IMG/VR virus record: IMGVR_UViG_3300029906_000007
DNA from: an uncultured virus (IMG/VR IMGVR_UViG_3300029906_000007)
Lineage: Duplodnaviria > Heunggongvirae > Uroviricota > Caudoviricetes > Crassvirales
Reading direction: 5' to 3' (one strand)
DNA length: 64,000 nt
A program made the translations under genes and the position numbers. Below are positions 3,904 to 64,000 of this stretch, piece by piece (the stretch's first letter is position 1; every line of letters begins with the position of its first letter). Under the pieces are notes generated by a model. It was not told where the DNA came from and ran no database searches. It saw only the letters and a list, made by a program, of their open reading frames with translations.

Positions 3904-6900
3904 ATGCGTATATTTAAAGTCCGTGCTGCAAAAACTAAATATAATTATTACACTATCAATTCTGATATTGAAGGTGCAGATGTTATATTTGATGGAGAGC
4001 AAATAGGAGTTATTGAAAATGGCAAATTTGTATGTAAGATTGAAGAAAAGACTGATACAGGATCTCATACTGTTAAAGTTGAAAATGGTACTTTAGTAAA
4101 TAAAGATACTATTTATTACTTATCTGCAAAGACAACTTTAACTATTCCTGCCGCCGGAGGTCGATATAATTTTAATACTAATAATATTAATAGTACTAAA
4201 GTAACATATACTCCTAATTATCCTGCTCAAACTACAATCAAAGCTAATACAGCTGTTGATTTAAATACTGTTCAAACTCCTGCAAATTCTAATGTTGGAT
4301 TTACTCCAACTTATTATGATATTGCTAAGAATGATACTCTTGCTACAAAAGACCATAATGTTGAATTAACACAAAATGAATCAGGTAAGAAAATTACTGT
4401 TACTATTAAACAAGATGCTAATGTTAATGTAAATTATACAGTTAACTCTGATATTGAAGGTGCTGAAGTTCAATTCTCTATTAACAATAGTGATTTCACC
4501 CCTGTAGGGAACATCACTGGTGGAACATTGAACTTTAATATTCTCAAAACAGATACTGCTTCTACTGTTTATATTAAACTTGTTGGTGGTACTCTTCCTG
4601 AAATAAAAGAAACTTATATATTTGAAGCTGAAGATATTGATATATCGGCTGAAGCATGGAGTGGTAAACCTACTATTACAAGTAGTAAAGGTATGACTAC
4701 TTATTCAATGCCTGCTGTTAAGACATTAAATAATAATGTAACAACTACTACAATTAATGCTGTTTCTAATCAGCAAGATGGAGTAGCCGTTGGATATACT
4801 CCAAATGATACTATTAGTATTGAAGAAAATAAGACTACTAATGCTAAACAATATACTTATGATTATACTCAGGATGAATCTGGTAAGACATTAAGAATAA
4901 CAATTCGACAATCTGCTGGAGTACAATATCAATATACAGTTAATTATAATGTTCCTAATTCAACTGTTCTTGCTGATGGAGAAAATGTTGGTACTATAAG
5001 TAATGGTAGTTGTACATTTGTTAAATGGAATAGTGGAGCAAAAGCTTCTTATGCTATTTCCTTTACAGGGGGACAAATGCCTTCTCCGCCTGCTACAACT
5101 TATGTGTTTAGTGTTAATCCTACATCTCTTTCATTTGGCGATAAAGGTGAAACTAAATCAGTAACTGTTACTTCTACTAAAACTGTTTATACAAATGTTC
5201 ATGCTACTGGTACTGTAAGTAAAGGTCAAGCTGTTAATTTACAATATAAGACTAATAGTAAAGTAACTAATCCTACTTATACAAGAAGTAATTCTGGTAC
5301 AGGATTAAGTGGAACTGGAACTAGTATTAGATTTGCTGCTAATCCTAATAAAGTTCAACGTAGTGGTAGTGTAACATTTACTCAGTCTGAATCTAATAAG
5401 ACTGCTACAGTAAATTGTACTCAAGCTGCTAAAGTTGCTTATTCTTATACTGTAAATAGTAACTGTGAAGGCGGTACTGTTTATTTCAATAATGTTAATA
5501 AAGGAACTATTTCTGATGGAAGATTAGCATTTGAAGATGATGCTGCAAGTGGAACTGTAAGAATTAGCGGTGGTGTTCCAAGCGATTCAAGTACTTATAT
5601 AACTAGTGAAACTAGAACTAACGGACAAGATTCTGATTCTGATACTACTACTGATTCTGAAACTGTATTTAAATGGAATAATTGGACATGGGATTATCTT
5701 GAATCTCCGGGTATGGACTTTATTCAAGCTGGAGAAACTAATACTTGGCCTCTTTATTCTCATGTTAAAAGTAGAACTGGTACACGTTATCGTTATAGAG
5801 ATATTTATGAATCTCGTAGTCAATATCGTGATACTACTTATTCTGCTCCTTCTAATAAAACTGTTTATGGAGATAGTTCTGCTGTAACAATGAATTATAC
5901 TTCAAGTACATCTACAAGATGGACATCATGGTCATTTGATAGTTATGGCTCATGGGGATCTTGGGGATCTTGGTCATATGGATCTTGGAGTTATTCAAGA
6001 AAAAATGTTACTATTACTGAATCTCTTTCATGGATGAGTGTAAGTAAAAGTACATCAGGATCTAGTGGAACTACTGGATATAATATTTCATTTAATGCTA
6101 CAGAAAATACTGGATCAGATAGAAGTGGTTATATTACATTTAGTAATGGAATTAATTCTTATAGAGTTCTTGTTACACAAGTCGGCGTTGAATATGTATT
6201 TAAATTTAGTGGATCTTTAGGAACTCATAGTGCGAATGGAACTACTAATAGAAATAATTTAACTGAATGTGGTGGTAGTTGTAGACTTATAAGTTATAAA
6301 AAAGTTGGTAGTACATATACTCGATTAGGTGTATCATTTGCTTCAGGCGGGCAACCAAATCAAGTATATGATTATTGGGCTTATGGTGATGCAGGTAGTA
6401 CACCAAATATAGGATGGGATTTTGCTATAAGTTGTAAACAATCTCCTTATATGTCTAGTTCTTCAAATAGTAGAAGTTATACAGTTACTATGAAGCAAGC
6501 AGAATCAGGAAAAACTGCTAGTATTACTATAAAACAATCTGATTATGCTTTAAATATCGGCGGTAAAACTACTGATACTTATAATCTTGATTGGAATGCT
6601 TATACTAAAAATACTAACACAGGATATAAATATCCTGCTTGTCAAAGTGGAGGAGATCGTAATAATTGGCCTACATGGATTGCTGATTCTCAAGCTAGTT
6701 GGCTAGGATTAAATAATGGTCAAACTACATTTACAGGCAAGAATGGTGATATTTTATATTGTAAAGCTCTTTCTGATAATAAATCATTTAGTTCAAGAAC
6801 TGGTAGATTTACAATTGGTATTCAAGGTAAAACTGCTCAACTTAGTCCTAGTACATATTCGTTTAATGTTGTTCAAGCTGCTTCTCCAAATGAGTTTTAT

Positions 6901-7158
6901 GTTAAAACATCATCTGGAACTGGAGTATTTGCTTTTAGTAGAAGTAATGCTACATCTTTACCGCATTCATCTGTTATTTCTTTTTCTGTTACTACAACCC
7001 CTCGTAAAATTTCATCATTATATATAAGTAATACTGGATTAGGAGCTCCATTTACTTCTTATGGTACTCAAACATTTAAAGTTTGGAAAGTATCTGGTAA
7101 TACTGCTACATATTATAAAACCATATCTGTTGCTCCTGGAGGTACTGTTACAATTTAA
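3904..7158 (+). CDS. BACON/Ig-like repeat virion protein
   Basis: 1084 aa, Thr/Ser/Asn-rich. Repeated BACON-type ends (TQNESGKKITVTIKQ, TQDESGKTLRITIRQ, TQSESNKTATVNCTQ, KQAESGKTASITIKQ) and repeated YTxNS-type starts. Confidence 0.75.
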   Translation: MRIFKVRAAKTKYNYYTINSDIEGADVIFDGEQIGVIENGKFVCKIEEKTDTGSHTVKVENGTLVNKDTIYYLSAKTTLTIPAAGGRYNFNTNNINSTKVTYTPNYPAQTTIKANTAVDLNTVQTPANSNVGFTPTYYDIAKNDTLATKDHNVELTQNESGKKITVTIKQDANVNVNYTVNSDIEGAEVQFSINNSDFTPVGNITGGTLNFNILKTDTASTVYIKLVGGTLPEIKETYIFEAEDIDISAEAWSGKPTITSSKGMTTYSMPAVKTLNNNVTTTTINAVSNQQDGVAVGYTPNDTISIEENKTTNAKQYTYDYTQDESGKTLRITIRQSAGVQYQYTVNYNVPNSTVLADGENVGTISNGSCTFVKWNSGAKASYAISFTGGQMPSPPATTYVFSVNPTSLSFGDKGETKSVTVTSTKTVYTNVHATGTVSKGQAVNLQYKTNSKVTNPTYTRSNSGTGLSGTGTSIRFAANPNKVQRSGSVTFTQSESNKTATVNCTQAAKVAYSYTVNSNCEGGTVYFNNVNKGTISDGRLAFEDDAASGTVRISGGVPSDSSTYITSETRTNGQDSDSDTTTDSETVFKWNNWTWDYLESPGMDFIQAGETNTWPLYSHVKSRTGTRYRYRDIYESRSQYRDTTYSAPSNKTVYGDSSAVTMNYTSSTSTRWTSWSFDSYGSWGSWGSWSYGSWSYSRKNVTITESLSWMSVSKSTSGSSGTTGYNISFNATENTGSDRSGYITFSNGINSYRVLVTQVGVEYVFKFSGSLGTHSANGTTNRNNLTECGGSCRLISYKKVGSTYTRLGVSFASGGQPNQVYDYWAYGDAGSTPNIGWDFAISCKQSPYMSSSSNSRSYTVTMKQAESGKTASITIKQSDYALNIGGKTTDTYNLDWNAYTKNTNTGYKYPACQSGGDRNNWPTWIADSQASWLGLNNGQTTFTGKNGDILYCKALSDNKSFSSRTGRFTIGIQGKTAQLSPSTYSFNVVQAASPNEFYVKTSSGTGVFAFSRSNATSLPHSSVISFSVTTTPRKISSLYISNTGLGAPFTSYGTQTFKVWKVSGNTATYYKTISVAPGGTVTI

Positions 7159-7168
7159 ATTTATAATT

Positions 7169-7525: not shown

Positions 7526-7541
7526 AATATTTGTCAAACTA

Positions 7542-7579
7542 TTTGTCGGTAATGATATTTTTATTATTATTGCCGACAA
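7542..7579 (+). promoter_or_regulatory. Bacteroidota-type promoter overlapped by an inverted repeat
   Basis: TTTG (7542)-N19-TATTATTG (7565), one mismatch to TAnnTTTG. Arms ttgtcggtaatgata / tattattgccgacaa. Confidence 0.45.
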
Positions 7580-7603: not shown

Positions 7604-7945
7604 ATGAACAAATTGAATCTTATTCGTAATAATCTTTTAGCTAAAGGAGTTCTTGATGCTCAACTTAGTGCATTACTTATTGAGTTTGATAAAGAATATA
7701 CAACTGCTTTAGCTAATGCTTCTAAAGTTCCTGCTCTTGAACAACGTATTGAGGAACTTGAAGCTTTGACTATGATTCTTCGTGGGAGTTCCCCTGTAGA
7801 GGAACAACCATCTGAACCTACTCAACCTGATAATGAAAATAATGACGATAGTGGAGCTGATCCAAATGCTGAAGGAGTTGATCCTGTTGAGGCATTAGAC
7901 GCTGCTGAATCTAAAGTTTTAGAAGGCGTTAATTTTAGTAAGTAA
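7604..7945 (+). CDS. Hypothetical protein (short coiled coil, acidic tail)
   Basis: 113-aa ORF with codon usage like its neighbours. Confidence 0.65.
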   Translation: MNKLNLIRNNLLAKGVLDAQLSALLIEFDKEYTTALANASKVPALEQRIEELEALTMILRGSSPVEEQPSEPTQPDNENNDDSGADPNAEGVDPVEALDAAESKVLEGVNFSK

Positions 7946-9784: not shown

Positions 9785-11227
9785 ATGGCTGCTTTAACTG
9801 TTGCTGATATTAAGCGTTTAGCTGCTGAAATTCAACAAGCTAAAGTTAAAGCAGCTGCTACTGGTAGTTCGGAGAAACTCTCTTATATTGTATATAATGA
9901 TGATGATTCTCCGAACTATTCTCTTACATTGGCAGCTGCTTTATTTACTATTCCCGGTATTAGTTCTATTAATAGACTTAGATTATTAGCTATATATAAT
10001 ACTAGTTCTGCTGGTGGATATGATGATTTATATCAAAGCATAAAGTCATTAGAAAATCAAATTAAATCTGTTCAAGATAACATTACTGTAATTGAAGCTC
10101 AACTTGATGGTATTGATGATGCTATTTCTCAAATTAGTAATCTTAATAACCAACTTGTTGAGCTTCGTTCGTTATATAATACTCTTAATATTACTGTTAA
10201 TGATTTATCTGAAACTGTAAATGAAATTGAAACTATTGTTGATAGTATTGATATAGAAAGTCTTACTAAGAAAGTAAATACTAATACTGAGAATATTACT
10301 ACATTAACAAGTAGTCTTGATGCTATTGATAAAAGAGTACAGAAACTCGAACAAGGTTCTGGTGGTGGATCCTCTACGGGGGAACTTACAGATAGAGTTA
10401 ACAAACTTGAACAAGATGTTCAAACGCTTAATGAAAAACTTATTCAATATGATGCTACTATTGAACAATTAAATTATAATATAGAACAAGCTAACCTTAA
10501 AGCTCAAAATGCAGAAAATATTGCTAATGGACTTAATTATAATGTAAGTAAAAATACTTCTGATATTAGTGCTATAAATATTTCTATTAATTCTATTAAA
10601 AATGATATTACATCTATTAATAAAAGAATTGATTCTATTGTTGTAGGAGGTGATGTTGATTTAAGTGAATATGCTACTAAAACTGATTTAAAAAATGAAC
10701 TTTCAAGTATGTTTTCAAGTCTTGGAGGAACTACAGTTTATAATATTCATTTAATTGGTTGGCATGATGATATTGAACTTGAATTTGATTCTGAAACTTA
10801 TCCTGATGCTAATAATAGTAATGAATATTTTGAACAATATGGTATTGTAGCCGCAAAAGAAATTACTACTAAAGAACAATTATTAAGTATAACAGCAAGT
10901 AGTGATATTATTAGTAGATATTTAAGTGAAATAATGTATGTTGAAAGTATTGATGAATTATATAATAATATGCAAGCTCATGCTGTTATAATTAGTATTG
11001 GTTATGGAAAACCTAAAGCATTATCTATTAATAAAGTTGGAGATACTATTTATATTGATACTTATTGGGCTATTGATAATGGAGTTATTGCTAGATTTGA
11101 ATTAACTTCTACAAGTCTTAAAGTTACTGAATTATTTGATATTAAAAATATTACTGATAAAATTAATACTCTTGAATCTACAATTAGTAATCATGAATCA
11201 AGAATTAGTGAATTAGAAAGGAATTAA
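9785..11227 (+). CDS. Coiled-coil tail fibre/needle-like protein
   Basis: 480 aa. Heptad repeats, DLSEYATKTDL fibre motif and a C-terminal NHESRISELE coil. Confidence 0.55.
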   Translation: MAALTVADIKRLAAEIQQAKVKAAATGSSEKLSYIVYNDDDSPNYSLTLAAALFTIPGISSINRLRLLAIYNTSSAGGYDDLYQSIKSLENQIKSVQDNITVIEAQLDGIDDAISQISNLNNQLVELRSLYNTLNITVNDLSETVNEIETIVDSIDIESLTKKVNTNTENITTLTSSLDAIDKRVQKLEQGSGGGSSTGELTDRVNKLEQDVQTLNEKLIQYDATIEQLNYNIEQANLKAQNAENIANGLNYNVSKNTSDISAINISINSIKNDITSINKRIDSIVVGGDVDLSEYATKTDLKNELSSMFSSLGGTTVYNIHLIGWHDDIELEFDSETYPDANNSNEYFEQYGIVAAKEITTKEQLLSITASSDIISRYLSEIMYVESIDELYNNMQAHAVIISIGYGKPKALSINKVGDTIYIDTYWAIDNGVIARFELTSTSLKVTELFDIKNITDKINTLESTISNHESRISELERN

Positions 11228-12875: not shown

Positions 12876-13826
12876 ATGGCTAACGAAAAAGTTGTTTCTA
12901 TTGAACGAATTATAGCTAAGATAGATAATGATTTCAATCCTGACAATAGTGATTGGATTCCTAGAGTTGCTGCATGGGCTATTGATGCTATGAATCAACT
13001 TAAATGTCTTAGAAAAGTTCCTAAATGTCATAGACTTGAAGTTAATCATAGACTTGCATTAAGTCCTTGTTGTCTTAATTATGATGAAATGAGAGTTTAT
13101 GATCCTAATGGATGTTTAATTCCAAGAGCTGGAGATCCTCGATGTGGTCTTAATAAATGTGGAAATGGTGGTTGTTCCCCTGTAGAGGATATATATCATC
13201 ACGGACATCATCACCATGGACATTATTGTCATACTTGTGAACCTTATCCTCATGTTCATGTTGATGATTGTGGATTTGAAACTGAACATAATCATCATGA
13301 TTGTTGTCATGTTTCTGAATCTCATACTCGTGAAGTAGTTAATACTCATTTATTTCCAGATAAAACTCTTACTTGGACTGAACATACAGGAAGTTATGAT
13401 TATAGATGTATGCATCGTGTTCATCATGCACATATTCCTAGCGATCAACTTCCTAATCGAAATTATGTTATTTCTGGAAATTATATAGAACTTAATTTTG
13501 ATGTTTCATATATTGTTATTGCTAGATTAGATGTTGATACTGAATATAGTAATTATTATCATTGCGAAGTTCCAAAGATTCCTGATAATGGTTTACTTAT
13601 TGAAGCTATTACAGATTATTGTATGTATAAAATGCTTACACGTGGATATAAACATCCTGTTATGACTTTAACTGCTGCTAGTGAAGCTCTTAATCCTTTT
13701 GTTGCATGGAAAGTAAATATTGAAAAAGTTAAACGTAGTGTTTTGCTTGATGCTCAACAACCTATTAATGATGACTTATTTAAGTCTGCTTTTATGATAT
13801 TTACTTTTGGTCGTCGTAATAAATAA
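12876..13826 (+). CDS. Putative tail tubular/ring protein with His/Cys-rich insertion
   Basis: 316 aa, directly upstream of the muzzle gene. C-terminal PKIPDN..LIEAI..Y motif and a central His/Cys-rich block. Confidence 0.55.
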   Translation: MANEKVVSIERIIAKIDNDFNPDNSDWIPRVAAWAIDAMNQLKCLRKVPKCHRLEVNHRLALSPCCLNYDEMRVYDPNGCLIPRAGDPRCGLNKCGNGGCSPVEDIYHHGHHHHGHYCHTCEPYPHVHVDDCGFETEHNHHDCCHVSESHTREVVNTHLFPDKTLTWTEHTGSYDYRCMHRVHHAHIPSDQLPNRNYVISGNYIELNFDVSYIVIARLDVDTEYSNYYHCEVPKIPDNGLLIEAITDYCMYKMLTRGYKHPVMTLTAASEALNPFVAWKVNIEKVKRSVLLDAQQPINDDLFKSAFMIFTFGRRNK

Positions 13827-16800: not shown

Positions 16801-18557
16801 ATAAAGAACTTATTCGTATTAATAATATTAAGCTTTTTAATTATGAAGAAGAAGATCAAAAACTTAATACTTATGGTTCTTATCCTGGTCATATAACATA
16901 TAATAGTACTCTTGTATTTAGAAGAACTGGTGCTAGATGGGATCCTCAATGGACTACTGTTAAAGGTACTGATGGTTGTAGATATTATTTTTTAAATCAA
17001 GGTTCTTATAATGTTGTAAGTCCTCAAAGACTTGTTCAACATATTTGTTATTGGCATAGATTTATGGAAGGTAAAGTATCTAATAATAGACCTAAACAAG
17101 AATTATTTATTCTTAATATTAATAATCAAGAACGTTTTGATGATGAGAAAGATACTAAACGAATAGCTAAACTTCCAAATGATTCTTTATATTTTCATGG
17201 TGGTCCTAATGTTCTATTTCCAGGTAGACCTGTTATGCCTATTCAAACTCTTGATATGTATAAATATGTTTTTCCTGATGAAACTGTTAGTGATAAATTA
17301 TTAATGGCTTATGATGATAATCTTAGAAATATTACTCAATTTGATAAAACTATTCGTCGCAGTGATGTTATTCAAGATGAATCTTATGTAAATGCTTGGC
17401 GAACTTTTCAACCTAATGGGTATAAAATTATTACTGAAAATAAAGGTAAAATTGTTAATCTTATAGGTATTGGACTTTATCTTCTTGCTCATACTGAACA
17501 TAGTATGTTTATGTTTGATAGAACTGCTGCTCTTCAAACTCAAGATCGTGATGTTAAGTTAAGTATGCCAGATGCATTTGATACTAAATATGTTGAAGTA
17601 TATACTTCTGATAAAGGATTTGCTGGTATTCAAGATAGATTTGCAAGTATTATTGGTGAGTTTGGTTATGTATTTTATAATAATGATTTTCATAGATTCT
17701 TTAAATTTGATGAAAAACAACTTAAATATATAGATGAAGATGTTCGTCTTTGGTTTGAAAAAGTTCTTCCAAATAAAGTTCGTTTTGCTAATGATAAATA
17801 TAATAATCGTCTTATAGTTTGTGCTGAGTATGGTAATAAAGTTGATACTTTAAGTTTTCATAATGATACTCAAACATTTATAAGTTTACATGATTATAAT
17901 TATAAATATGCTTATAATACTAAAGTTAGAACTTATATGAATAGACTTATTCAAGGTGAAAGTCTTTATGAATATAATCATGAAAGTAATTATGGACGTT
18001 TTAATAATATGCTTACTAAAGCAAAAAGTAATGGCACATTTTATACTGTAGCTAATGGTAATAGTCATTATGATTCTTATATAGATGTTATATTTAATGA
18101 TCAATATGAAGCTATAAAATTCCTTGAATATATTAGATATAAAGTTAAGAAACTTGATAAGTATCTTGTGCCTGATTCTCCTGATAATGAAATCACCCCC
18201 GTAGAGGATGAAGTATGGACTAATATTGGATATGCTAATAAACTTCTTCCTAAATATAGTGGTGATGTTCTTCGTATATTTAATGAATATTGTGATAGTT
18301 TTGATATGAGTCTTGATACTACAGGAGATGTTAATCGTTATAATAGATATAAACTTCCTTATTTTGAACTTGGTAATTGGAACTTTAATTATTTCCGTAA
18401 TAATATACCTGCTCATCCGGGTGAGCCAAGTGATAGATTAAGAAGAATTTATGGTAATCAAATTGTAGTTCGTTTTATATTTAAAAATGCAGATAATAAA
18501 CGAATTGAATTTGAAACTCTTGATTGTATTGTAACTAAACAACGTAATGTAAGATGA
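13833..18557 (+). CDS. Muzzle / tail stabilisation protein
   Basis: 1574-aa beta-rich protein with C-terminal propeller-like motifs (ENKGKIVNL, HTEHSMF, GFAGIQ, FISLHDY). Sits immediately before the cargo genes. Confidence 0.7.
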   Translation: MSDIVKKLNLNKHPSDVPNYGLIQAKNIKISNDFKRIVNEEGISANTVIHQCISERFGNGYYIAGCVPTSNELILFVCGNAIDPNTGEYAESAIYRYNEIDNKCIIINDQWKYHGGKLRGTYTYNINNHLIIQVAEDPYDLEEFVNPNYKPDELDLKVPLKTFDLDDWDIIKDLDLGECIDGRILYVEEREVNNRKFENDTISISERFGNRADYVNAIVPQVPICNVTWGGLIKGNATKGIYTFFIRYKIDCWGNYTQWYPIGFPITVDSIESNEVSRYNWYYDYKDQDDESGHGYGCVDFYSADREFVKVLPKIRFKFEGTHDYLNFQKYQIGIIIKRLDTTKCYRTADFDRYISGSGRTEDRHILTEYEYIFNKEKLYDISLDELTLTKYNYYNVRNTINYQNRNYISNYTETNYNISEKEIGLFGKGFNIEELVKLNCFAYAPYVKTNVKFKDKVSQYDRTDNCMDEFCYDTNLVHTTTKAKGRNKLDQVKSWEKVRGYDYGAWHRIMGNWTPGSLFGVPLNEVFGIDRNKEISVNGTKKPAYKFILCQQAGREQFAWWNRDDSRCRICLVENGAIAQDFGSQVTIIIDDKSDPIKYNCDINWMTAYSPMLDYGLSYESRLAHNTLIPGEVYSFYIHFVDKFGHSTNGFHIPNSNSKWKYDVDLNTTLGSYFNCNNGTPTNPIPTDPQLSVIFDMYNNNPSKWRDYKLYQFINNGGNNGLQLDIKDDGQYVENIILGYYANNSGQTFHRIPMYSFTAQGDERPIPLVFGIDCVIDDELFINELRNRGYIGYYLSYEKAEPMSRVVGFASETDASEDIDDHPTNHDLDNLDDKFLGDYNGRANYYNGNNNISTGGPKATENANKTLYVYSDDLNTSDKIKVDFNAISFRWALFDYRGFWQDQGTNKVAEYRASLNLPEVRAVTPIGNYDEIIYPVDEYEILIGDAPNNAGKGTRVKMKNPNVFNTQTYQRNAIATIWSLNNNIYTNPNKELIRINNIKLFNYEEEDQKLNTYGSYPGHITYNSTLVFRRTGARWDPQWTTVKGTDGCRYYFLNQGSYNVVSPQRLVQHICYWHRFMEGKVSNNRPKQELFILNINNQERFDDEKDTKRIAKLPNDSLYFHGGPNVLFPGRPVMPIQTLDMYKYVFPDETVSDKLLMAYDDNLRNITQFDKTIRRSDVIQDESYVNAWRTFQPNGYKIITENKGKIVNLIGIGLYLLAHTEHSMFMFDRTAALQTQDRDVKLSMPDAFDTKYVEVYTSDKGFAGIQDRFASIIGEFGYVFYNNDFHRFFKFDEKQLKYIDEDVRLWFEKVLPNKVRFANDKYNNRLIVCAEYGNKVDTLSFHNDTQTFISLHDYNYKYAYNTKVRTYMNRLIQGESLYEYNHESNYGRFNNMLTKAKSNGTFYTVANGNSHYDSYIDVIFNDQYEAIKFLEYIRYKVKKLDKYLVPDSPDNEITPVEDEVWTNIGYANKLLPKYSGDVLRIFNEYCDSFDMSLDTTGDVNRYNRYKLPYFELGNWNFNYFRNNIPAHPGEPSDRLRRIYGNQIVVRFIFKNADNKRIEFETLDCIVTKQRNVR

Positions 18558-19412: not shown

Positions 19413-22400
19413 ATGAGCAAAACTAAAATTCCTAATGTTATTCGTGGTGGTGTAGCTATTCCTCTTGGTAGAAATCTTTATTATATGAAAGGTAGAAAAC
19501 ATAGTCAAGGTGGAATAGACATTGGTAAAAATCCTCGTACAGGACTTGAAGTTGAAGATGGAGAAATAATTCAGATGAAACCTAAAGAACTTAGAGTTTT
19601 ATCTGCTCAAAAAGGAATTGGAACTGGTAATACAAGTCCTGCTCAAGCTGTTCTTAATGGTGCTAATCCAGATAAAGTTTTTCAAGCACAAGAGAATTTC
19701 AAAGATAGAAATGGAATAAATGATGATGGAACTAAAGCTGAACTTGGTATTAAAGAAACTCTTAGAAAATTATTTCCTAATATTGCTAAAGCATATGATT
19801 ATATAACAAAAGATAACGATAAAGAAACAAATATGTCTGAACCTAAAACAACTAATAAGAAGACTGGTCAATTACCTTATGGCTATACTCTTCGAAATTT
19901 ATATAAATTTGAAAATCCAGATCGTAAAGGTATAAAAAGAAATGTAGCTTATCCTTATGATAGTAGAACTATAGGTCCTGGTATTGATTTTAAATCTGGT
20001 CATCCTGAACTTGCTAAGAAAGCTAAAAAAGGTATTCCTCTTCAAGATGTAAATGATAGTGCTGTTACTCATCTTCGTAAAGATGATAATGTTATTATGT
20101 CTAATTATGCAGATATTTATGGTCAAGCTTCTGCTGATACTGTTAGTCATGGACCTAGATTTCTTGCTGCACAAGCTCGTTATCAACAAGGTAATATAAG
20201 AAAAGCATTTCCTGAAATAGCAAAAGCTATGTATAAAGGAGATGCTGAAGCTCTTAAAAAAGCTGTACTTAAAGTTACTCCTAAAGATCATAAATATAGA
20301 AGACAACTTGTTCAAGATTATGAAGTATATCCAAATAAAAAACAATCCGGTGGTATGATTCAAATAAATGGAAATGTTAAAAATGGTCTTATTTATACAC
20401 CTAGACCTAAACAAAAATGTGGTGGTAGAAGAAAAGCTAATAATGGAGATGTTATTAGATTTAGAGATATAAATCCAGCTACAAGAGGAGGTATGCCTGT
20501 TTCTGCTATTCCCACAGATATTGAATTAGAAGGTACAACTCCTTATGTTGATATATCGTTTAAAAGAGATACTACAGATAAACCTAATAAAATTAATATT
20601 CCAATTGATACTAAAATATTAGATAATTATTTATATAATACTATTAATGGAGGTCCTGTTTCTTCTAAAGCTGAACTTAATAGAATGACTTCTTCTGTTG
20701 ATTCTAAAAATCCTATAGAATTAAAGAAAAGTAATGTTAAACATGAACGTAGTCTTTATAAAAGACAATATAGTGAAGGCGAATATGAAAGAGCTGTTAA
20801 AAATGGACTTAATTCTCCTGCTGATATTGTTGCTATGACTCGTTCTGGAAAGAAATTTGGTAGAGATTATAATGCTGATAGAGAATATTATTTAAGAACT
20901 GGTAAATTTAGTGTTTATACTGATAATATTGAAGGTAATGCTGGATCATCACCCATATCTTCTCCTACGGGGGAACAAACACAAACTGCTACAACTACAC
21001 AAACTTCTAATGCTAAACAAACTTCTCCTACAGGAACAAGTAATACTCCCCGTAAAGGAACAACATCTGTTAAACCTAATACTTATTCTGTTACAAATTA
21101 TGTTATTCAAAAAGATGGTTCTGTTAAAGCTGATGGTGTTAGAACAGGTTCTGAATTTAAACAATATGAAAGACGTAAAAATCAAAAAACTGTTACTGAT
21201 GCTAAAGTAACTAAACCTTGGAGAGAAACTATTGGAGATGATGCTGATGTATTACATCAAATAGCTTTTGGTGATAATTTTGAAAATAAAAAAGTTCAAG
21301 ATGCTCATAGTAAAATACTTCAAGAAACAGGTTATAATCCTAAATCCGGACGTGCTGTAATTCATGAAGATGTTAGAGAATATAGTAGAAAATTTAATGA
21401 AAGATTTAATCAAGCTAATAAAAAATTAGGTTTATATACTATTCCTGCTGGAAAAAGCGGTGATAATTTTTATGGTGATATTAAAAAATGTGGAGGTAGA
21501 AAACGAGCTAAAGATGGATTAGAACATCCATATGAAGATGATATTGCTGGTGCACAATGGAATGAACGTCATTATGGTAATGCAGAAGATATACCTTATT
21601 TACAAGCTACTGTTGATAAATTACGTAAAGAAGCTGGAGTAAAAGAAAGACGTGCTTTCTTTGCTAGAGAAGATGGTAAAGCTGGAGCTATAGATGCGAT
21701 TCCTGAAGCTCAACGTAAATATGTTACAGTTGCTAAACCTACTATAGATTTATCTCCTATTAGTAAAACAGTTGTTCCTGAAGCACAAAAACGTGCTGCA
21801 TTAAAAGGTACTATTCGTGATAAATTTAATGAAGGTCCTACACTAGGAGATTGGATTGGTGCTGGTGTTAATTTAGCTGCTGGTCTCGGTGATTTCTTTG
21901 GTACTAATGCTTATCTTAATAAATTTAAATCTCCTGATCTTAGACTTCAACCACATCTTAAACTTAAAACTTATTATAATAATAATGCTGAAATTGATGA
22001 AATTAATCGTAATGTTGAAAATATTTCTCGTGATATAGATGCTAATACTGCATCTTCAAGTACAGCATTAGCTCGTAAAATTAATGCAAGAAATAATGCT
22101 ACTATGGCTAAAAATAAATCTTGGCAGAATAAATTTAATATTCAAGATGAACGTATTAATACTGAACGTAAACTTAATTCTAATATTGATGGTCTTAATG
22201 CATATAGATTTAATAGATGGTCTATTCGAGATGCTGCTATTAATAATGCTAAATATCAAGCTAAAGCAAATAATCTTGGTAATTTAATGGGTAATATTAG
22301 TGGAACTGTTAATGATGTTATTGCTCGTATAGAAGCACGTAGAAACTTTAATAATAATCTTGGATATATTCAAGGTGCTAATCCTAATGTTGATGATAGA

Positions 22401-45370: not shown

Positions 45371-45427
45371 AATTATAAAAATCATGTAGATTAATGTACT
45401 TACCCCGTAAAGGAATGGATACGATAA

Positions 45428-45461
45428 AGCCTGACACTAACATGATTGTCAGCATCAGGCT
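45428..45461 (-). terminator. Stem-loop between two inverted motif copies
   Basis: Minus strand reads agcctgatgctgaca-atca-tgttagtgtcaggct, fully paired when G-U is allowed. Confidence 0.5.
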
Positions 45462-45513
45462 CAGCATACACATCCTTTACAGGGAAACAAGCACTATGTT
45501 CGTAATTGGGAAC

Positions 45514-49619: not shown

Positions 49620-50693
49620 TTATTGAAGTATTAAAGCAGCTTCAGAAGCAGCTTGAATTTTCTTCGCTTTATCTCCATATAATAAGGAATCAAGTCGTTT
49701 AATTCCTTCAACAGAAGTATCAACATTACTAAAGTAACCACTAACAGCATTCATTGCACCCCAAGCAGTACCTATAATTTCTTGTTGACCAGGACCTTCA
49801 TTATAATACTTCCAAGTATCACTAATCTGATTAGCTTTACGCATACTAAGATCGCTAGATTCAATAGCCATCCATTTTCTATTAACAATATCTTTAAATG
49901 TATAATTAGATTGAAGAAGTTTTGTCTTTTCTTCTTCACTCATAAATTGTTCACAAAGATACTGAATAACAGCATTATCATCCATCTTAATAGAAGCAAG
50001 ATGATTATAACATTCTTGAGTATGTTCAGCATATTGTTTACTTATACCAAGAATTTCTTGAGCAATAGCAATCTTATTATGAACTTGTTTAGTATGTTTA
50101 AATGTAACAAAATTTTGAGCAGTACAAATAGCTGCATTCAAAGTATTTTGACAAATAACACGAATAGGAGTAAATAAAATCTTAACTCCAGAACTTCCAT
50201 CATGACTATTTGTAAATACAAGATAAGTTTCAACAGGATCACCATGAACAAGAATATTGTTAGGTAATTTACAACTAACAAATATACGTTCACCATTACC
50301 CCATGCACCAGCTGTTTGCCAAATAGCTTTATCTTTTCCAATAGCATCATCAAAAAAGTTAAAAGCTACATTATTTTGAACAACAGTATATTTACTTTTT
50401 ACAGAACCAAGAGGAATATTATAATCAGTACGATATGTAGTGAAAGCATTGGGAGCGGTGCGATAAAGTTTGTTTCCCCGTAGGAAAGCATTACCTTCAG
50501 CTATATCCTCATTAATTCTATCAAGTTCTTTATCACTGAAATCTCTCATAGGCATTTCAGCAACCATATTAGTCTTTTCAACATGAAAATTAAGACCAGC
50601 TTTATTCATTACTTCTTCACTAGTCTTACAATCTTCAACATTGATAGCCCCAGCACATTGCCAGGGCATACCTATAACACCAAATTTAGCCAT
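49620..50693 (-). CDS. DUF932 family phage/plasmid protein
   Basis: AGLNF, YTVVQN..AF.FFD, TAGAWGNG, NSHDGS, TPIRVICQNTL and GTAWGAMNAV motifs. Confidence 0.85.
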   Translation of the reverse strand: MAKFGVIGMPWQCAGAINVEDCKTSEEVMNKAGLNFHVEKTNMVAEMPMRDFSDKELDRINEDIAEGNAFLRGNKLYRTAPNAFTTYRTDYNIPLGSVKSKYTVVQNNVAFNFFDDAIGKDKAIWQTAGAWGNGERIFVSCKLPNNILVHGDPVETYLVFTNSHDGSSGVKILFTPIRVICQNTLNAAICTAQNFVTFKHTKQVHNKIAIAQEILGISKQYAEHTQECYNHLASIKMDDNAVIQYLCEQFMSEEEKTKLLQSNYTFKDIVNRKWMAIESSDLSMRKANQISDTWKYYNEGPGQQEIIGTAWGAMNAVSGYFSNVDTSVEGIKRLDSLLYGDKAKKIQAASEAALILQ

Positions 50694-54113: not shown

Positions 54114-55328
54114 TTATATAAAATAAACTTCTTTTATATGATAAGGAACTCTATTTACCCCCGACCTCTCTCCATAAGAAATAAAAACATATCTTCCAAT
54201 ATATTCTTCTTTATTATAAAGAACTTCTTTCTGAGAATATTGAGGAATACTTAATCGAGTTTCAAAAGTTTCATTATTAATATCATTACGACAACGAATA
54301 ATAGGTAAATCACGAGTCTTTTCTGGATAAATATCAATAACTTCAAATTTACCATCAGTATGATCTTTATATTTTAGCATTACCTTAACAGAACGATTTC
54401 CATAATTATATTCAGCATTAGGATTACGCATTATAAGACCTTCAAAACCTTTATCAATAAATTCATTACGATATTTGAGAGCAGTTTCATCATTAGTAAT
54501 ATCATAATAAGGAAGAATAAGAAATTTCTCTTTATTATTAAGATGTTCATTACGATTATTAAATCTAATAATATGACTTTTAAATTTATCAAATAGAAAG
54601 TCAATACGCTTAGATTGAATCATACTATCAATAGCAATATCATAACACCAGAATTGTAAAAGTTTATGTTCAGGACAAGTAGGATCTTTAACAAAGTGAT
54701 TAATCATATTTACTTTATAACCGGGAAGATAAATTTCACCATCAAGAGCGATATTATAATTAATAAGATAATTAATAACATCGGTATCTATAACTTCAAT
54801 AAGATAATCTTTTAAATCAGTTAATCCGTTCCATACTTCTCCTTCACGACTTTGTATACGAATAGTATAAGGATGAAACATATCTCCATCATTATTAAAC
54901 GTAATACAACAACGAAGTCCATTAATCTTCCATTGACCAATAAATACATCAGAATACTTGAAACAATTTATAGTATAAAGTTTAGCAAACATTGGAAGAA
55001 TATTGTTATTATTAGTATTAGTTTTATTAGTAGGAAGATATGTATCAAGATAGCGAATGAACTCTTCATTGCTCCATTCCTCTACGGGGAAACTACACGT
55101 ATCATCACGAACTTCATCATATTCAAGATAACCTTCTTTACGTTTCTGATTAATACGACTTTTAACTTCAGTCTTAACATTAGACTTACTTATCAAAATT
55201 GTATCAGAAGTATATTTCTTTCCTAATATACCATATTTAATAGTAATATAATTAGGACTATCAACAGTAAGTTCCCAACCGTAAGGTTCACCTTTATTAT
55301 TTCTTTTATATAACTTAATCGTTTCCAT
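54114..55328 (-). CDS. ATP-dependent DNA ligase
   Basis: Motif I QWKINGLRC, III LDGEIY, IIIa FWCYD, IV EGLIMR and V LKYK. N-terminal WGR-like region. Start METIK assumed. Confidence 0.9.
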   Translation of the reverse strand: METIKLYKRNNKGEPYGWELTVDSPNYITIKYGILGKKYTSDTILISKSNVKTEVKSRINQKRKEGYLEYDEVRDDTCSFPVEEWSNEEFIRYLDTYLPTNKTNTNNNNILPMFAKLYTINCFKYSDVFIGQWKINGLRCCITFNNDGDMFHPYTIRIQSREGEVWNGLTDLKDYLIEVIDTDVINYLINYNIALDGEIYLPGYKVNMINHFVKDPTCPEHKLLQFWCYDIAIDSMIQSKRIDFLFDKFKSHIIRFNNRNEHLNNKEKFLILPYYDITNDETALKYRNEFIDKGFEGLIMRNPNAEYNYGNRSVKVMLKYKDHTDGKFEVIDIYPEKTRDLPIIRCRNDINNETFETRLSIPQYSQKEVLYNKEEYIGRYVFISYGERSGVNRVPYHIKEVYFI

Positions 55329-56277: not shown

Positions 56278-57409
56278 CTCTGTTATTAAATAGTTTAATT
56301 GTTTCGTTAATATAATGAACTATAGTATTAGGACTGTATAAACTTCTTAATTCAGCAAAATCTTTAGCTCCATATTCATGAGGTATAATACAAGGAGGAA
56401 TATTCCATTTATCACGATATTTAATGGCACACATATAACCAGTACGATCATTATCAAATAGACTTATAATTTTACCATTTCTTGCACATTTAGAACGAAT
56501 AAAATTATATTCTGTTTGAGTAAGTTCATGAGTTTCATGAGGAATATTAATAACTCCGACTCGGTAACATTCGTGATTGTCACCCCGTAGGGGATAGTCA
56601 TAACAGAACTGTTCGAGAGCTAATCTATCTTTAGTAGATTTAGTTATAATAATAAAATTATAATCAAATCCATCAAGATTAAGAACACCTTCTATATGAT
56701 TAGAATTAGTTATAAATCTAACTTCATTATGACTTCTCTTAGGGAAATAAAGTTTCCAATTATATATACCTTTATTATCTTGACCTAATAAATAAGCATA
56801 ACATGGGTCATGAGGATTATAATAATATTTAGGTTCAGGATTAATCTTTCTATTAATATAATATTGGTCAACAGCATAAACATAATGTGTATTAAGAAAA
56901 TTAAGATTAATTCCAAATTGTTTCCAATAGTTTTTATCATCATTATTCCAACCTCTTGGAACTATTTCTATAATATTCTTTCTACTTTTAATATTAACAA
57001 GTCCTTTTTTAATATCAGCATTAATTCTTTCATCTTTTTCTTTGCCATAAATATAATTACGAAATGTATAAGCACAATGTTTAAGACAAAATATAAAATC
57101 ATGTTTATTTGTAACATCAATATCTCTTTCAACTACAGCAGATAGAACATATGCTATAATATCCCATACATCTCCCCAAAAATAACCAGCAAAATCTTTA
57201 GCTTTAAGTTGACCACGATTATTAAAAGCAAAACCAAAACTAGGATGATTATCTTCACGAAGAGGACTACTTATTGTTTTACCAGTTTCAATACACCAAT
57301 CAATTGTTTCAATAGGTATATCAAGATATGTTGCTGCAATAAGTTGTTGAGATACTTTAGAAAGTATCATATCTTTAGTTAGTTTACTATTAGCTACACC
57401 TCTGCCCAT
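56231..57409 (-). CDS. dnaG: DnaG-type DNA primase
   Basis: SPLREDNHPSF..KDF N-terminal domain; TOPRIM-like IITKSTKD, FDNDRTG and AKDFAE. Start 57409 preferred because the longer start lies within a hairpin. Confidence 0.8.
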   Translation of the reverse strand: MGRGVANSKLTKDMILSKVSQQLIAATYLDIPIETIDWCIETGKTISSPLREDNHPSFGFAFNNRGQLKAKDFAGYFWGDVWDIIAYVLSAVVERDIDVTNKHDFIFCLKHCAYTFRNYIYGKEKDERINADIKKGLVNIKSRKNIIEIVPRGWNNDDKNYWKQFGINLNFLNTHYVYAVDQYYINRKINPEPKYYYNPHDPCYAYLLGQDNKGIYNWKLYFPKRSHNEVRFITNSNHIEGVLNLDGFDYNFIIITKSTKDRLALEQFCYDYPLRGDNHECYRVGVINIPHETHELTQTEYNFIRSKCARNGKIISLFDNDRTGYMCAIKYRDKWNIPPCIIPHEYGAKDFAELRSLYSPNTIVHYINETIKLFNNRDEEIETIGYQTEMPY

Positions 57410-57434
57410 AATATCATTATTAACATTAATAATA

Positions 57435-57466
57435 AAGCCGTTGTCCGAATATACGAACAACGGCTT
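57435..57466 (-). terminator. Stem-loop downstream of the SSB-like gene
   Basis: Arms aagccgttgt / acaacggctt. Confidence 0.55.
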
Positions 57467-60555: not shown

Positions 60556-60588
60556 AATATCAAAGACCTCTTTGTTTGTTCAACACTA

Positions 60589-60619
60589 CAAATATAGTTA
60601 TTCTTTTCTTATCTACAAA
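60589..60619 (-). promoter_or_regulatory. Bacteroidota sigma-A type promoter
   Basis: Minus strand TTTG-N19-TATATTTG (full consensus), upstream of the RecT-like start at 60555. Confidence 0.75.
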
Positions 60620-62057
60620 CAATTTGCCCAGTATTTTCGTCAAATACAAGAAGTTTTTCTTTTTCATGTATTTTATAAGTATCAGTTTCTTTACTATTCA
60701 AAACTTCTCTTTCTTCGATAGTACCAGCATAATAAAGTTTATAAATAAGAATAGGATTTGTAACAAATTTTAACTTGTTGTATCGGTATTTAAACTCCTT
60801 CCAATCGGCGTACAGGGCTGAGGTGAAAATTACCACATCTACGGTACATTCTAGCTCCACAGACGAAGCATTTTTAATCGAAAGTACATTTATACTACCT
60901 TGACCAAAATAACGGCTCAAATCGTCTATATTAGCCTTATTTGAATTAACATCTTGTTGGCTAATATTTACATTCATTAACAAGTTAAATCGTCTTAGAT
61001 TTTCAGAACTAATTGCTTTAGCTTTAACAACTTTATGTTCTCCTTTATGAGCACCAGATTTAATAAGAATAGGAATACCATTAGCATCATATGCTTTCAT
61101 AGGTTCAATACAATCATGATAATCTCCTGCATTATATCCAGCATCAACAAGAGCTTTAGTTATTTTACGAGCAAATTCACCATGTTTACTAACAATAAGA
61201 ATACGTTTGTTCTTGTTTTCTTCAACAATTTGAACAATTTTAGGAATCTTTTCTTCACTATTAGTTAGAAGAAGATTTCTTTCACGCATTATATTATAAG
61301 TAACATTAGCACGTTCTAAAAGAGCATTAGGATTATAAAACTCATCAATTTGTTTATTAAACGGAATAGTTGTATCAAGATATTCTGACCAACCATTTTG
61401 ACGAGCAATATGATCTCTAATAGTAGCACCTGAAACATTGGTAAGTTTATTACCCATACGAGCATCATTAATCATATCCATACTTCCAAATATCTGTATA
61501 GATTGAATAATATAATCAGTATATTTTTTATATGTTTCAGCTTTATCAGTATCAAGTTCAAGACTAACTCTCCATTCTTCTACGGGGAAACAATTACGAA
61601 CTGCATTGGCTTGACTTTCAGTCATAACGTCACGAATAATAGGATAATGCCTATCAATTTGTTTATATATTTCAGGATTAGAAACATATTTAGCTAAAGC
61701 TACAAATCGAAATTTACTTTGATTAATAATTTGAATATGATTATCAAGTAAAACAGCAAAACCTAATGCAATACATAAGTCATACTCATATTTATAAGTA
61801 GGACGAATATATTTATTAGTAACAATAGAAACATGTTCAAGTTTATTTGCAGAAACAAGTTTTCCCATTTCAGCCATATGAGGATATTCATTACAATAAA
61901 TAAACACACGGCTATTAGGATTTTTATTCCGAACAAGATTTATAATATAAATAGCAAGTTCATAAGGATTAATAGGATCTATTGCATAAACACTACCAAT
62001 ACCTTTTTGATCACGCCATTTAGTAGCAATTTTATTATAAATATCTTCTTTATTCAT
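60609..62057 (-). CDS. SF2 helicase-like protein, motifs degenerate
   Basis: Second RecA-like domain features (KIVQIVEENKNKRILIVS, VDVVIF, IYKLYYAGTIEE). No canonical Walker A or DExx. Adjacent to the polymerase. Confidence 0.6.
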   Translation of the reverse strand: MNKEDIYNKIATKWRDQKGIGSVYAIDPINPYELAIYIINLVRNKNPNSRVFIYCNEYPHMAEMGKLVSANKLEHVSIVTNKYIRPTYKYEYDLCIALGFAVLLDNHIQIINQSKFRFVALAKYVSNPEIYKQIDRHYPIIRDVMTESQANAVRNCFPVEEWRVSLELDTDKAETYKKYTDYIIQSIQIFGSMDMINDARMGNKLTNVSGATIRDHIARQNGWSEYLDTTIPFNKQIDEFYNPNALLERANVTYNIMRERNLLLTNSEEKIPKIVQIVEENKNKRILIVSKHGEFARKITKALVDAGYNAGDYHDCIEPMKAYDANGIPILIKSGAHKGEHKVVKAKAISSENLRRFNLLMNVNISQQDVNSNKANIDDLSRYFGQGSINVLSIKNASSVELECTVDVVIFTSALYADWKEFKYRYNKLKFVTNPILIYKLYYAGTIEEREVLNSKETDTYKIHEKEKLLVFDENTGQIVCR

Positions 62058-64000
62058 CGAATAATGTATTATACATTCCAGTCATTTTTTTAAGAGTACT
62101 TTTCTTTTTATTACCAATATTAAGCTTAATAGGATTAATAATCTTCATTGCTTCAGCATAATAAAATCTATAATTAATATTACGTTCAGAAATAGGTTTA
62201 TCATCAAGTGTATTAAGAATAGTACCATAATATCCAGAGCATAATTTGCTTCTAGTTTTATCTGTAAAATTACTTACTTTCTCAATAACAGTTCCAGTAT
62301 TACTTACATAATATCTAACATATCTTTGTGATTCACGTCTAATAATCTTACCGTTTTCAACAAATGTTTCTTCAACATGAAATTGTTTTCCAACATTTTG
62401 ACTACGACAGAAATCAAGAATATCTGTAGAATCATATAAAGTACGAGTAACAGGAATATCATAAAGAAAATAATTTTCTACAGCTTTAGCAACAATCGGC
62501 ATATCATAACCTTTACTTAAATCTTTAATATACATTTTTGGATTAAAAGCACCTTTATAATCAATTTTACCATTAAGCTCTTGAACAATATAATTATTTA
62601 TATTAGCATTAATATAACATTTATATTCTTCACTATCAGCATCAAGTCCTGTATATTCTTTCCATCTATTAGCAATATCATTAAATGTTTCTCTCTTACT
62701 TTCATAAAGTTTAATAACAATACCATCAGTATTAGCACTTACAACTTCTATTCCATTAAGTTCAAGCTCTTCACAAAGCATTAAAATCATTAATTGCCCA
62801 TTAATTGTAACACGCAATGTAGCCATACGGTCAAATATAGGAGAATTTTCATCACCAAATTTACCATATATACTATTAATAACAATCTTAAATGCTTCAG
62901 CAAGAAGTTTAGGCGGAATACCATCTATAAAATCTTCTTTACTATGTTTAGCTTTAACTCGAGTATCACGAAAATATTTAACAAGTTTAGCAAATATATC
63001 TTCAATAAGATGCTTTGGTGCAACATGATAAACAGCCATGATACTAGGATAGAAACTAGCAATATCCCAATGTATATAAGTATAACTATCTGGAGTTAGT
63101 GTTTGTTCCCCTGTAGAGGATGTCATAAACTCATGCTTGCTATACAAAGCTCTAGGAGGATCTTGACTATGTAATCCACCAGTAGCCATAGTATATTTCA
63201 AATTACCTATTTGAATTGTTTCTTCAAAACTATCTTTATTAGTACGAGTAACTTTTACATTACGAATACGTTCAAGATAATCTTGCATATATTTAGTTTT
63301 AAACTTAATAATAGGAAAAATAACTTTATTAAAAGCCATTGTAGTCCTAATAGTCTTTTGACCTTTCCATTGAGTAGGATGAAGTCCACTAAATTCACTA
63401 TAAAACTTTTCAAAAAGAATATTTGCAATATTACTTCTGGAACTACTTAAAAGATTTACTTTATATGAAGAACTAAGACTATAACGAAGTTTTATTTCGT
63501 CAGGAAATAGACGAGCCATTTCAGCAACAATGAAAACATCATTAAGATTGTAATGCATCATTTCTGGAATATATTCTTCAAGAATAAATCTATCCCAAAC
63601 TTTAACAACTTTATTAAGTTCTTCAACAGTCATTCCTTTATAGCTATTACCTAAATCATCTTTAAAAGTATCATAAAAGTGTTTATCTTTCTCAGTAATA
63701 GGAGGCATTGTATATTCAAGAAGTTCATACCATTTAAGATTGATAGAAACTTGCTTTAGACCTTTAGGAATATAAATAGTATTACCATTCTTATCAGTCA
63801 TTTTACCAACTTTATTAAGAGCAAACACTTTCATAACATCTATAGATGTATAAGGAAGCTTGAATTTACGCAGAGAATTAATAACATAATCACGCTTAGC
63901 CAAATCAGGATTATCTTGCATAGAAATAATCTTCTTACTAATAAGATAAAGATTATAAATAAAATCTTTAGCATTATCAAATCTCATACAATTAGCTAAA
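62050..64000 (-). CDS. Family B DNA polymerase, 5'-truncated
   Basis: WDIASFYPS (motif A), KIVINSIYGKFG (B), SANTDG (C) and YNLNDV (Exo III). Frame open to the window edge. Confidence 0.93.
   Translation of the reverse strand, partial: LANCMRFDNAKDFIYNLYLISKKIISMQDNPDLAKRDYVINSLRKFKLPYTSIDVMKVFALNKVGKMTDKNGNTIYIPKGLKQVSINLKWYELLEYTMPPITEKDKHFYDTFKDDLGNSYKGMTVEELNKVVKVWDRFILEEYIPEMMHYNLNDVFIVAEMARLFPDEIKLRYSLSSSYKVNLLSSSRSNIANILFEKFYSEFSGLHPTQWKGQKTIRTTMAFNKVIFPIIKFKTKYMQDYLERIRNVKVTRTNKDSFEETIQIGNLKYTMATGGLHSQDPPRALYSKHEFMTSSTGEQTLTPDSYTYIHWDIASFYPSIMAVYHVAPKHLIEDIFAKLVKYFRDTRVKAKHSKEDFIDGIPPKLLAEAFKIVINSIYGKFGDENSPIFDRMATLRVTINGQLMILMLCEELELNGIEVVSANTDGIVIKLYESKRETFNDIANRWKEYTGLDADSEEYKCYINANINNYIVQELNGKIDYKGAFNPKMYIKDLSKGYDMPIVAKAVENYFLYDIPVTRTLYDSTDILDFCRSQNVGKQFHVEETFVENGKIIRRESQRYVRYYVSNTGTVIEKVSNFTDKTRSKLCSGYYGTILNTLDDKPISERNINYRFYYAEAMKIINPIKLNIGNKKKSTLKKMTGMYNTLFDE

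Follow-up and report, generated by a model that had tools for sequence, protein, structure and literature searches.

The 64,000-nucleotide (nt) stretch of DNA analysed here (hereafter the window), IMG/VR record IMGVR_UViG_3300029906_000007 from an uncultured crAss-like gut phage, carries an asymmetric, GC-rich word, CCCYGTARRRRA, on both strands and largely within its genes. This word, which has a constant C-CYGTARAGG-A core, appears to be a cis-acting, strand-specific signal in the phage DNA, read by a co-evolved factor that the phage itself encodes. Each strand carries a copy every ~5-8 kb and the two strands are tiled independently, so that from any stretch of the genome a correctly oriented copy lies within reach in either direction. 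The asymmetry of the word, its regularity within each strand and the occurrence of opposite-strand copies 26-200 bp apart together point to a directional process that reads one strand. The reading placed first, at a probability of about 0.3, is that each copy is a putative fixed start for template-directed RNA synthesis that primes DNA strands.

A pattern search of the window finds CCCYGTARRRRA exactly 20 times, 12 on the + strand and eight on the - strand, whereas the mean count in dinucleotide-preserving shuffles is 0.02 and none of 100 shuffles reaches 20. The number of genome-wide copies given in the first-pass annotation of this DNA therefore stands. Its start coordinates were exact for all eight - copies and for five of the + copies but one too low for the other seven, which start at 4500, 7792, 13178, 18197, 27843, 31143 and 63109. 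The weaker copies that had also been listed do not rise above chance: four matches with one mismatch are found (21024, 25264, 41707 and 49207), where chance alone would give 2.44 counting every kind of match, and allowing up to one mismatch does not recover those placed near 30184 and 53343. Eighteen of the 20 copies lie in genes, as had been reported, the two others being a pair at 45403 and 45473. An open reading frame (ORF) called there, 45394-46077(+), is spurious, having a low-complexity translation and corresponding by tblastn to the antisense of a p-crAssphage gene of the N4 gp49/Sf6 gp66 family; the pair is therefore intergenic, and the real gene at this place is on the - strand.

The word is maintained at the level of DNA. 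A check with codon-preserving shuffles had been proposed, and 300 within-gene synonymous-codon shuffles give a mean count of 2.19, a figure that includes the two intergenic copies untouched by the shuffle; for coding DNA the comparison is between 18 copies observed and ~0.19 expected. The word forces rare codons on the genes that carry it, since in the window CCC makes up 3% of proline codons, GGG 2% of glycine codons and ACG 2% of threonine codons. Over seven sequences with 180 copies, the word is read in five of six frames; in the sixth, its TAR would be a stop. Orientation is independent of the direction of the gene that holds the copy, with 67 copies sense and 75 antisense, and the remaining 38 (21%) are intergenic, where non-coding DNA makes up 3-9% of the sequence. 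Because the counts are far above those of the shuffles, five frames are used and rare codons are imposed, selection works on the DNA and not on the peptide, and the earlier statements on orientation, frames, codons and selection are all upheld.

The word had been described as nearly palindromic, with GTTCC/GGAAC arms. Alignment of the copies finds these arms in only two of the 20, at 7792 and 21048, and the real extension is upstream and one-sided: in the window there is conservation of G at -3, T at -1 and C at 0, and less marked preferences for G and T reach back to -16. The 124 copies pooled from five lineages give an asymmetric word of ~16 nt, and in p-crAssphage the conserved stretch is ~28 nt, running from ~12 nt upstream through to TGGA downstream. 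Across related IMG/VR loci and nine genomes the core C-CYGTARAGG is invariant and the 6-10 nt upstream of it vary by lineage; this holds in 63 of 66 loci, the other three having fewer than four sites. The layout of the word is two-part, and at the end of its conserved part TA leads into a run of purines. A reading of the word as a hairpin was dropped, given the rarity of the palindromic arms and an upstream folding energy near background.

The spacing of copies, the chief new result, is regular on each strand taken separately. In the window the mean gap is 5328 nt for the + copies, with a coefficient of variation (CV) of 0.28 (P 0.0002), and 8074 nt for the - copies, with a CV of 0.25 (P 0.0012), where random placement would give a CV of 0.83-0.89. 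The whole genome is marked every few kb, as had been proposed. Orientation switches at 16 of 19 steps along the window, against 9.6 expected by permutation (P ~0.001), and the rule beneath this alternation is regular spacing within each strand. In ten sequences, even same-strand spacing is found at P < 0.03 in 16 of 20 strand-wise tests, the exceptions being both strands of G008 and the + strands of crAss002 and G003; these tests are not independent, as sites are shared by descent. Pooled over nine sequences, gaps of less than 500 bp separate 3 of 71 adjacent same-strand copies but 42 of 164 adjacent opposite-strand copies, and 19 opposite-strand gaps are 100 bp or less. The close opposite-strand pairs are convergent in 23 cases and divergent in 20, an indifference of geometry that would follow from independent action of the two strands.

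The presence of the word in related Crassvirales, another suggested test, extends through the family Intestiviridae. Its 16-nt form matches many IMG/VR contigs of 85-97 kb, and five whole IMG/VR records (G002-G006) have 24-32 copies each, with balanced strands and no match to a reversed-pattern control; one of these, G005, is the same record as G001, the nearest to the window, and two of the five are ~92% identical to each other. All five named Intestiviridae tested carry it, with 16 copies in Carjivirus communis (p-crAssphage), 10 in crAss002, 36 in cr110_1, 23 in Rudgehvirus jaberico and 28 in cr3_1, the reversed control again giving 0 in each. The strand balance in relatives runs from 13/12 to 18/18, with 11-18 copies per strand. 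If one central transition is allowed, p-crAssphage has 31 copies (GTA 16, GTG 15) and crAss002 has 26 (GTA and ATA forms). Each of these two genomes (BK010471.1 and NC_055828.1, respectively) thus uses two spellings, near-equal in number, and the variation is by transitions only. The word is absent from five of five phages of other Crassvirales families (two Steigviridae, one Crevaviridae and two Suoliviridae).

Not only the word but also its places are conserved. The lineages compared are ~68-70% identical across about a fifth of the genome, yet in 136 of 272 site-by-lineage comparisons the orthologous protein position has a site no more than 15 nt away; with the same orientation required, 129 of 280 sites (46%) are kept, against 0.5% of 4656 random positions. 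Between the window and G001 all 15 alignable sites are kept, with four changes in the core, each at a degenerate position. Between G002 and G003, 21 of 24 sites are kept and divergence is 2.4% in the core (7/288) against 6.2% in the flanks (177/2880). The first-pass annotation had raised positional turnover, and what is seen instead is conservation of position. Compensating turnover was considered and rejected, since sites that are not shared have no nearby substitute in the same orientation (the median distance to one is 2129 nt; for random positions it is 1603 nt). Sites do favour variable, indel-prone parts of proteins: the share with an alignment gap within five residues is 53% for sites (273 cases) and 23% for random positions (5492), and local protein identity is 0.32 and 0.42, respectively. 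The idea of a mobile mini-insert was rejected, because decayed copies are absent and half of the sites hold their place from genus to genus; the same two facts are read as placement in tolerant loops rather than transposition. Among 66 primase-linked loci a relative lacking the word was sought as a basis for comparing gene content, and no clean loss was found. Eighteen of these looked word-poor with the strict pattern, but 63 have at least four sites with a looser core, and counts of 9-mers show that several of the word-poor loci hold spelling variants. The word is ancient and family-wide, and has been under long-term purifying selection.

In bacterial genomes the word is at control level. In the likely host order, that of an Alistipes metagenome-assembled genome (MAG), the consensus 12-mer has four matches over 41 genomes, against 12 for the reversed control, and four Bacteroidota genomes are likewise at the level of that control, which answers the proposal that Bacteroidota chromosomes be checked. 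A search of genome contigs with a 17-nt form gave 71 single matches strewn over all phyla, and the sole multi-copy record was a crAss-like contig of 90 kb that had been assigned to a MAG. This contig (G008:C1, 90224 bp) has 18 copies, and its place in a MAG labelled uncultured Mollicutes bacterium is probably a binning artefact. A host signal of the Chi or uptake type was rejected on the bacterial genomes searched. Bacteroides phages of other families lack the word, so it tracks the phage lineage and not the host.

Some phages of those other families carry dispersed words of different spelling. In the Steigviridae, DAC15 (NC_055832.1) has CACCAGAAG 24 times on both strands, two of these being the second copy in the terminal repeat, and Kehishuvirus (OQ221558.1) has CCAGAAGG 17 times on both strands, mostly preceded by CT; these words are enriched ~5-fold for 8-mers, and both their enrichment and the regularity of their spacing are weaker than in Intestiviridae. 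The Crevaviridae phage cr127_1 (NC_055886.1) has an element of ~30 nt containing CCTTGTGGC in 10 copies, five per strand, with a same-strand CV of ~0.2 (P ~0.01) and three opposite-strand pairs 171-558 bp apart. In cr55_1 (MT774376.1, Suoliviridae), CCRAAGTA occurs 37 times (21 +, 16 -), ~4-fold over Markov expectation and with flanks that are not conserved; it could represent a weak analogue or simply reflect codon usage.

An RNA-primed start is ranked first because of the two-part layout of the word, ending in TA and a purine run, the DnaG-family primase encoded by the phage and the indifferent geometry of the pairs. What we infer is a phage-encoded reader, the word as its start site and a replication primer as the product. 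A primase-helicase, or the phage RNA polymerase in making a primer, would recognise the C-run together with the upstream flank; RNA would then start at the purine run (AGAGGA) and head downstream, with the - copies serving forks that move one way and the + copies those that move the other. The promoters of T7-group polymerases have a two-part layout of this kind. Purines are the first residues of RNA chains and primers, and CTG and CTA are among the template trinucleotides within which DnaG-type primases begin; CTA is present in the complement of the word. If the reading is extended to the family, Intestiviridae including crAssphage would replicate from ~30 fixed, strand-specific priming sites, one per 5-8 kb of each strand, at which the primase or polymerase machinery of the phage would read a co-evolving word of 16-28 nt, and the other Crassvirales families would use spellings of their own, which is possible to the same degree of about 0.3. 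This would be a genome-wide, sequence-programmed initiation of strands, undescribed for any virus or cell.

Several points weigh against an RNA-primed start. Known primases read 3-5 nt, and we know of no precedent for a general priming signal of 16-28 nt. Priming signals of the ssi type come with a hairpin, unlike the word, at which no conserved hairpin was found: the 40 nt upstream have a folding energy of -3.65 kcal/mol, against a background of -3.16, and downstream there is no difference. Convergent pairs at the smallest distances (26-45 bp), most of which lie between genes, would fold into a long hairpin; these make poor sense as starts and look more like hairpin-forming intergenic elements. 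Primase, RNA polymerase, helicases, SSB and terminase are equally possible readers, with none singled out. In phi14:2 (NC_021806.1), the one crAss-like phage for which transcript mapping has been published, there is no strongly over-represented dispersed 8- or 10-mer, and the accessible part of the phi14:2 polymerase preprint describes early transcripts without a common motif. A link between the word and the transcripts mapped in phi14:2 was accordingly dropped.

The window has a gene content from which a reader could be drawn. It is that of a crAss-like phage, with CrAss tail ring proteins, family B polymerase, primase, ligase, dUTPase and a Gam-like protein, and G001 has the Crassvirus capsid family; INPHARED gave no match to the window by megablast, nor by tblastn with one virion ORF. 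Structural genes are on the + strand up to ~45 kb and replication genes on the - strand from ~46 kb. The DnaG-family primase, gene 56231-57460(-), matches PHROG 12622 (E 5e-84), carries the same name in relatives and is a candidate reader of the word. A second candidate is the 286-residue protein of 58648-59508(-), the equivalent of p-crAssphage gp19, which had been put forward earlier as AbrB-like. It lies between ORFs 59566-60555 and 57516-58547, which correspond by gene order to RecT and SSB of p-crAssphage. By tblastn, this protein, the RecT- and SSB-position ORFs and several virion proteins are present in eight of eight Intestiviridae and undetected in four outgroups, so the protein is conserved in the family. 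Its model, built with 26 homologues (pLDDT 84), is a beta-barrel of N- and C-terminal strands with a helical insert and has no convincing match to a solved fold. No PDB sequence relative, Pfam family or Foldseek match at E <= 0.001 was found for it; the best VIA score against solved structures is Z 3.9, the Atlas gives only unnamed viral clusters, and the entries at VIA Z ~3 are ones we take to be pseudobarrel folds. A scan of the window proteins, among them the earlier IHF-like candidate of ORF 11912-12871, against PHROGs, Pfam and NCBIfam found no sequence-specific DNA binder.

Four other explanations were weighed, of which two give the word to a protein that binds it or passes over it. The first-pass annotation had favoured a dimeric protein bound to a palindrome, as at parS, matS or SlmA sites, or sites like mycobacteriophage stoperators. 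More generally, an architectural, protective or roadblock protein on each copy could organise, partition, protect or package the genome, and the regular, genome-wide coverage, the protein-sized ~28-nt footprint in p-crAssphage and the family-specific 286-residue protein, with its N-terminus AbrB-like by eye and its gene between the RecT- and SSB-position ORFs, would all suit such a role. The word is not palindromic, however; a static binder gives no reason for regularity within a strand when opposite copies are 26-200 bp apart; orientation ignores transcription, which stoperators follow; and the model of the 286-residue protein is without a convincing DNA-binding fold. This explanation is unlikely in either form, and the dimeric and stoperator versions fall away with the asymmetry of the word and its disregard of transcription. 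A private, Chi-like self-mark accounts better for the spacing. Here a phage helicase-nuclease or translocase that travels on one strand would change its behaviour at a correctly oriented word, so that phage DNA bearing the word is spared or properly processed and wordless host DNA is not. Even spacing per orientation without long gaps fits selection by a limit on travel distance, pair geometry is indifferent, and the word is not above control in the 41 genomes of the Alistipes MAG order. The phage also has an SF1 RecD-like helicase and an ORF, 50697-51473, that matches a Gam-like family, and the annotation of p-crAssphage includes an SNF2 ATPase, RecT and a Gam-like nuclease inhibitor. Known Chi sites, though, are 5-8 nt and owned by the host, whereas this word is 16-28 nt with lineage-specific flanks; the family scans of the window proteins identified no nuclease partner; and a Gam-like inhibitor suggests that end-processing by the host is simply blocked. 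It is similarly improbable.

More doubtful than these is a nick-site motif, at each copy of which a phage nickase would cut one strand in mature or replicating DNA, even though no documented phage phenomenon comes closer, a short word being common there to weakly related phages. In the accessible parts of PMC11780129 and PMC3517423, the nick-associated motif is short, conserved across weakly related phages at similar positions and of unknown function, and lies mostly (88%) within coding sequence; the tf/LUZ24-like (TACTRTGMC), phiKMV-like and T5 motifs have 4-14 sites per genome, clustered in one part of it. Here, too, different genera share both the word and its places, and the phage encodes a DNA ligase. 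The nick motifs of all three groups are, as far as the accessible part of PMC3517423 describes them, on one strand only, whereas the window has 12 copies on one strand and eight on the other and its relatives 13/12 to 18/18; with 19 opposite-strand pairs at 100 bp or less, cutting of both members would break the duplex. Equally doubtful is a promoter, or terminator, of the giant phage RNA polymerase, which would give sense and antisense transcripts genome-wide. Its attractions are the constant start-proximal core, variable upstream flank and purine-rich downstream run, the virion RNA polymerase encoded by the family, and the convergent pairs at the ends of modules, where transcription must stop. 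The preference of the phi14:2 enzyme for single-stranded templates, described in the accessible part of its preprint, would make a site strand-specific. That same part of the preprint, beyond its motif-free early transcripts, describes middle and late promoters that are sigma-70-like, intergenic and in the sense direction, whereas the word is oriented independently of gene direction (67 sense, 75 antisense), and sense copies within essential genes of 13 kb exclude terminators.

A role at recombination junctions was also considered and dropped as unsupported. In public runs, the match between the window and contigs from other strains breaks off at 13168 and at 20959/20961, in both cases exactly at a copy of the word, a weak hint; these are four of the 24 loose ends listed, out of 67, at two distinct places. 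One block of homology to G001 begins 18 bp before site 45403. The 25 block ends between G002 and G003 do not bear out the hint, their distances to sites looking random by eye.

The copies in the window can be followed from the structural genes to the replication genes. The first, CCCTGTAGGGAA (4500..4511, +), is sense in gene 3904-7158(+), which encodes a 1084-residue ORF with a BACON domain, and is kept in G001; the second, CCCTGTAAAGGA (5059..5070, -), is antisense in the same gene. A 131-residue ORF lying before them, 2056-2451(+), matches a retroviral-type aspartyl protease (Pfam Asp_protease_2, E 9.5e-07). Next come CCCTGTAGAGGA (7792..7803, +), sense in gene 7604-7945(+) and bearing the palindromic arms, and CCCCGTAGAGGA (10370..10381, -), antisense in gene 9785-11227(+). 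The copy at 13178..13189 (+) is in the gene for tail ring protein 1, 12876-13826(+), at a place that is occupied in other lineages too but with the opposite orientation, and that at 18197..18208 (+), sense in gene 13833-18557(+), has its place kept in G004 and G008. Two divergent pairs follow. The copies at 20961..20972 (-) and 21048..21059 (+), 87 bp apart, are antisense and sense, respectively, in gene 19413-22511(+), the second bearing the arms; those at 27814..27825 (-) and 27843..27854 (+), 29 bp apart, are antisense and sense in gene 25102-31524(+), which has a further sense copy at 31143..31154 (+). The gene for the giant virion RNA polymerase, 31616-45229(+), holds one antisense copy (34742..34753, -) and one sense copy (38323..38334, +). 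This part of the window differs from its surroundings in its relation to G001: identity is 95-97% on both sides of 22977-45385, and this ~22-kb module of giant virion proteins and RNA polymerase aligns only in three short pieces of 65-71%, so that it would seem to have been swapped or to be fast-diverging.

The intergenic copies, 45403..45414 (+) and 45473..45484 (-), form a convergent pair, 70 bp apart, where the two gene modules converge. Beyond them, the copy at 50476..50487 (+) is antisense in the DUF932 gene 49620-50693(-) and its place is kept in G004. That at 55078..55089 (-) is sense in the gene for an ATP-dependent DNA ligase, 54114-55349(-), and kept in place in three other lineages, as is the copy at 63109..63120 (+), antisense in the family B DNA polymerase gene 62050-63987(-). 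The places of two copies are kept in all four other lineages: 56583..56594 (+), antisense in the DnaG-family primase gene 56231-57460(-), and 61576..61587 (-), sense in gene 60609-62057(-), whose position in the gene order corresponds to that of the p-crAssphage SNF2 ATPase.

The crAssphage family is among the most abundant of human gut viruses, and its replication and DNA handling are almost unknown. The word is a strong and old constraint on these genomes, fixed inside polymerase, primase, ligase and virion genes across genera. No published description of it was found, neither the exact nor the shortened strings occurring in any phage paper searched, so the phenomenon appears to be undescribed as far as the literature search shows, as the first-pass annotation had supposed. 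An oligonucleotide of 16-28 nt could be used to fish out the reader, and bench tests are possible because there are cultured carriers, crAss002 (Bacteroides xylanisolvens) and Rudgehvirus jaberico (B. cellulosilyticus). The word could also serve as a family-specific marker, and it constrains the recoding or engineering of Intestiviridae phages.

The word shares features with many known systems, but departs in a defining one from each of nick motifs, Chi, uptake sequences, parS-type sites, stoperators and T7-type promoters. The uptake sequences of Pasteurellaceae (USS) and Neisseriaceae (DUS) have an asymmetric core of 10-12 nt with weaker flanks, occur equally in both orientations with even spacing, are written through coding sequence in favoured frames, and can form hairpins as intergenic inverted pairs. 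The word resembles them in its asymmetric core, balanced orientations, even spacing, passage through genes and inverted pairs, but they belong to the chromosomes of competent bacteria and to a cellular uptake machinery, whereas the word is on lytic phage genomes and at chance level in the likely host order. Chi, read by RecBCD or AddAB as a moving enzyme, is an orientation-dependent sequence of 5-8 nt, over-represented in the host and spaced at a few kb. The word is likewise oriented and spaced at a few kb per orientation, but it is 16-28 nt long, is not over-represented in the likely host order and differs among phage families that infect the same host genus. The stoperators of Cluster A mycobacteriophages are also asymmetric, ~13 nt long and present in dozens of copies across a phage genome. 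They are oriented by transcription, mostly intergenic and bound by the immunity repressor of a temperate phage, whereas the word has no orientation rule and is mostly in genes, and no repressor is seen among the window proteins. Sites of the parS, matS, SlmA and Noc type are palindromes bound by dimers, unlike a word with arms in two of 20 copies and conservation that is one-sided and upstream. As with phage nick motifs, the word is far above chance, mostly in genes, and conserved in sequence and position among relatives; unlike them, it has 20-37 copies per sequence, balanced between the strands, evenly tiled on each and with close opposite-strand pairs. T7-group promoters have the same combination of a conserved start-proximal core and a variable upstream part for specificity that is seen across the related loci and genomes, but all T7-type promoters point with the genes, and the orientation of the word ignores gene direction. 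The ssiA and ssiB signals of RSF1010 lie on opposite strands as hairpins at a single origin and fix the start of RNA synthesis. The word differs in having ~30 sites and no conserved hairpin; like these signals, it is a long oriented word placed on opposite strands of a replicon that encodes its own primase.

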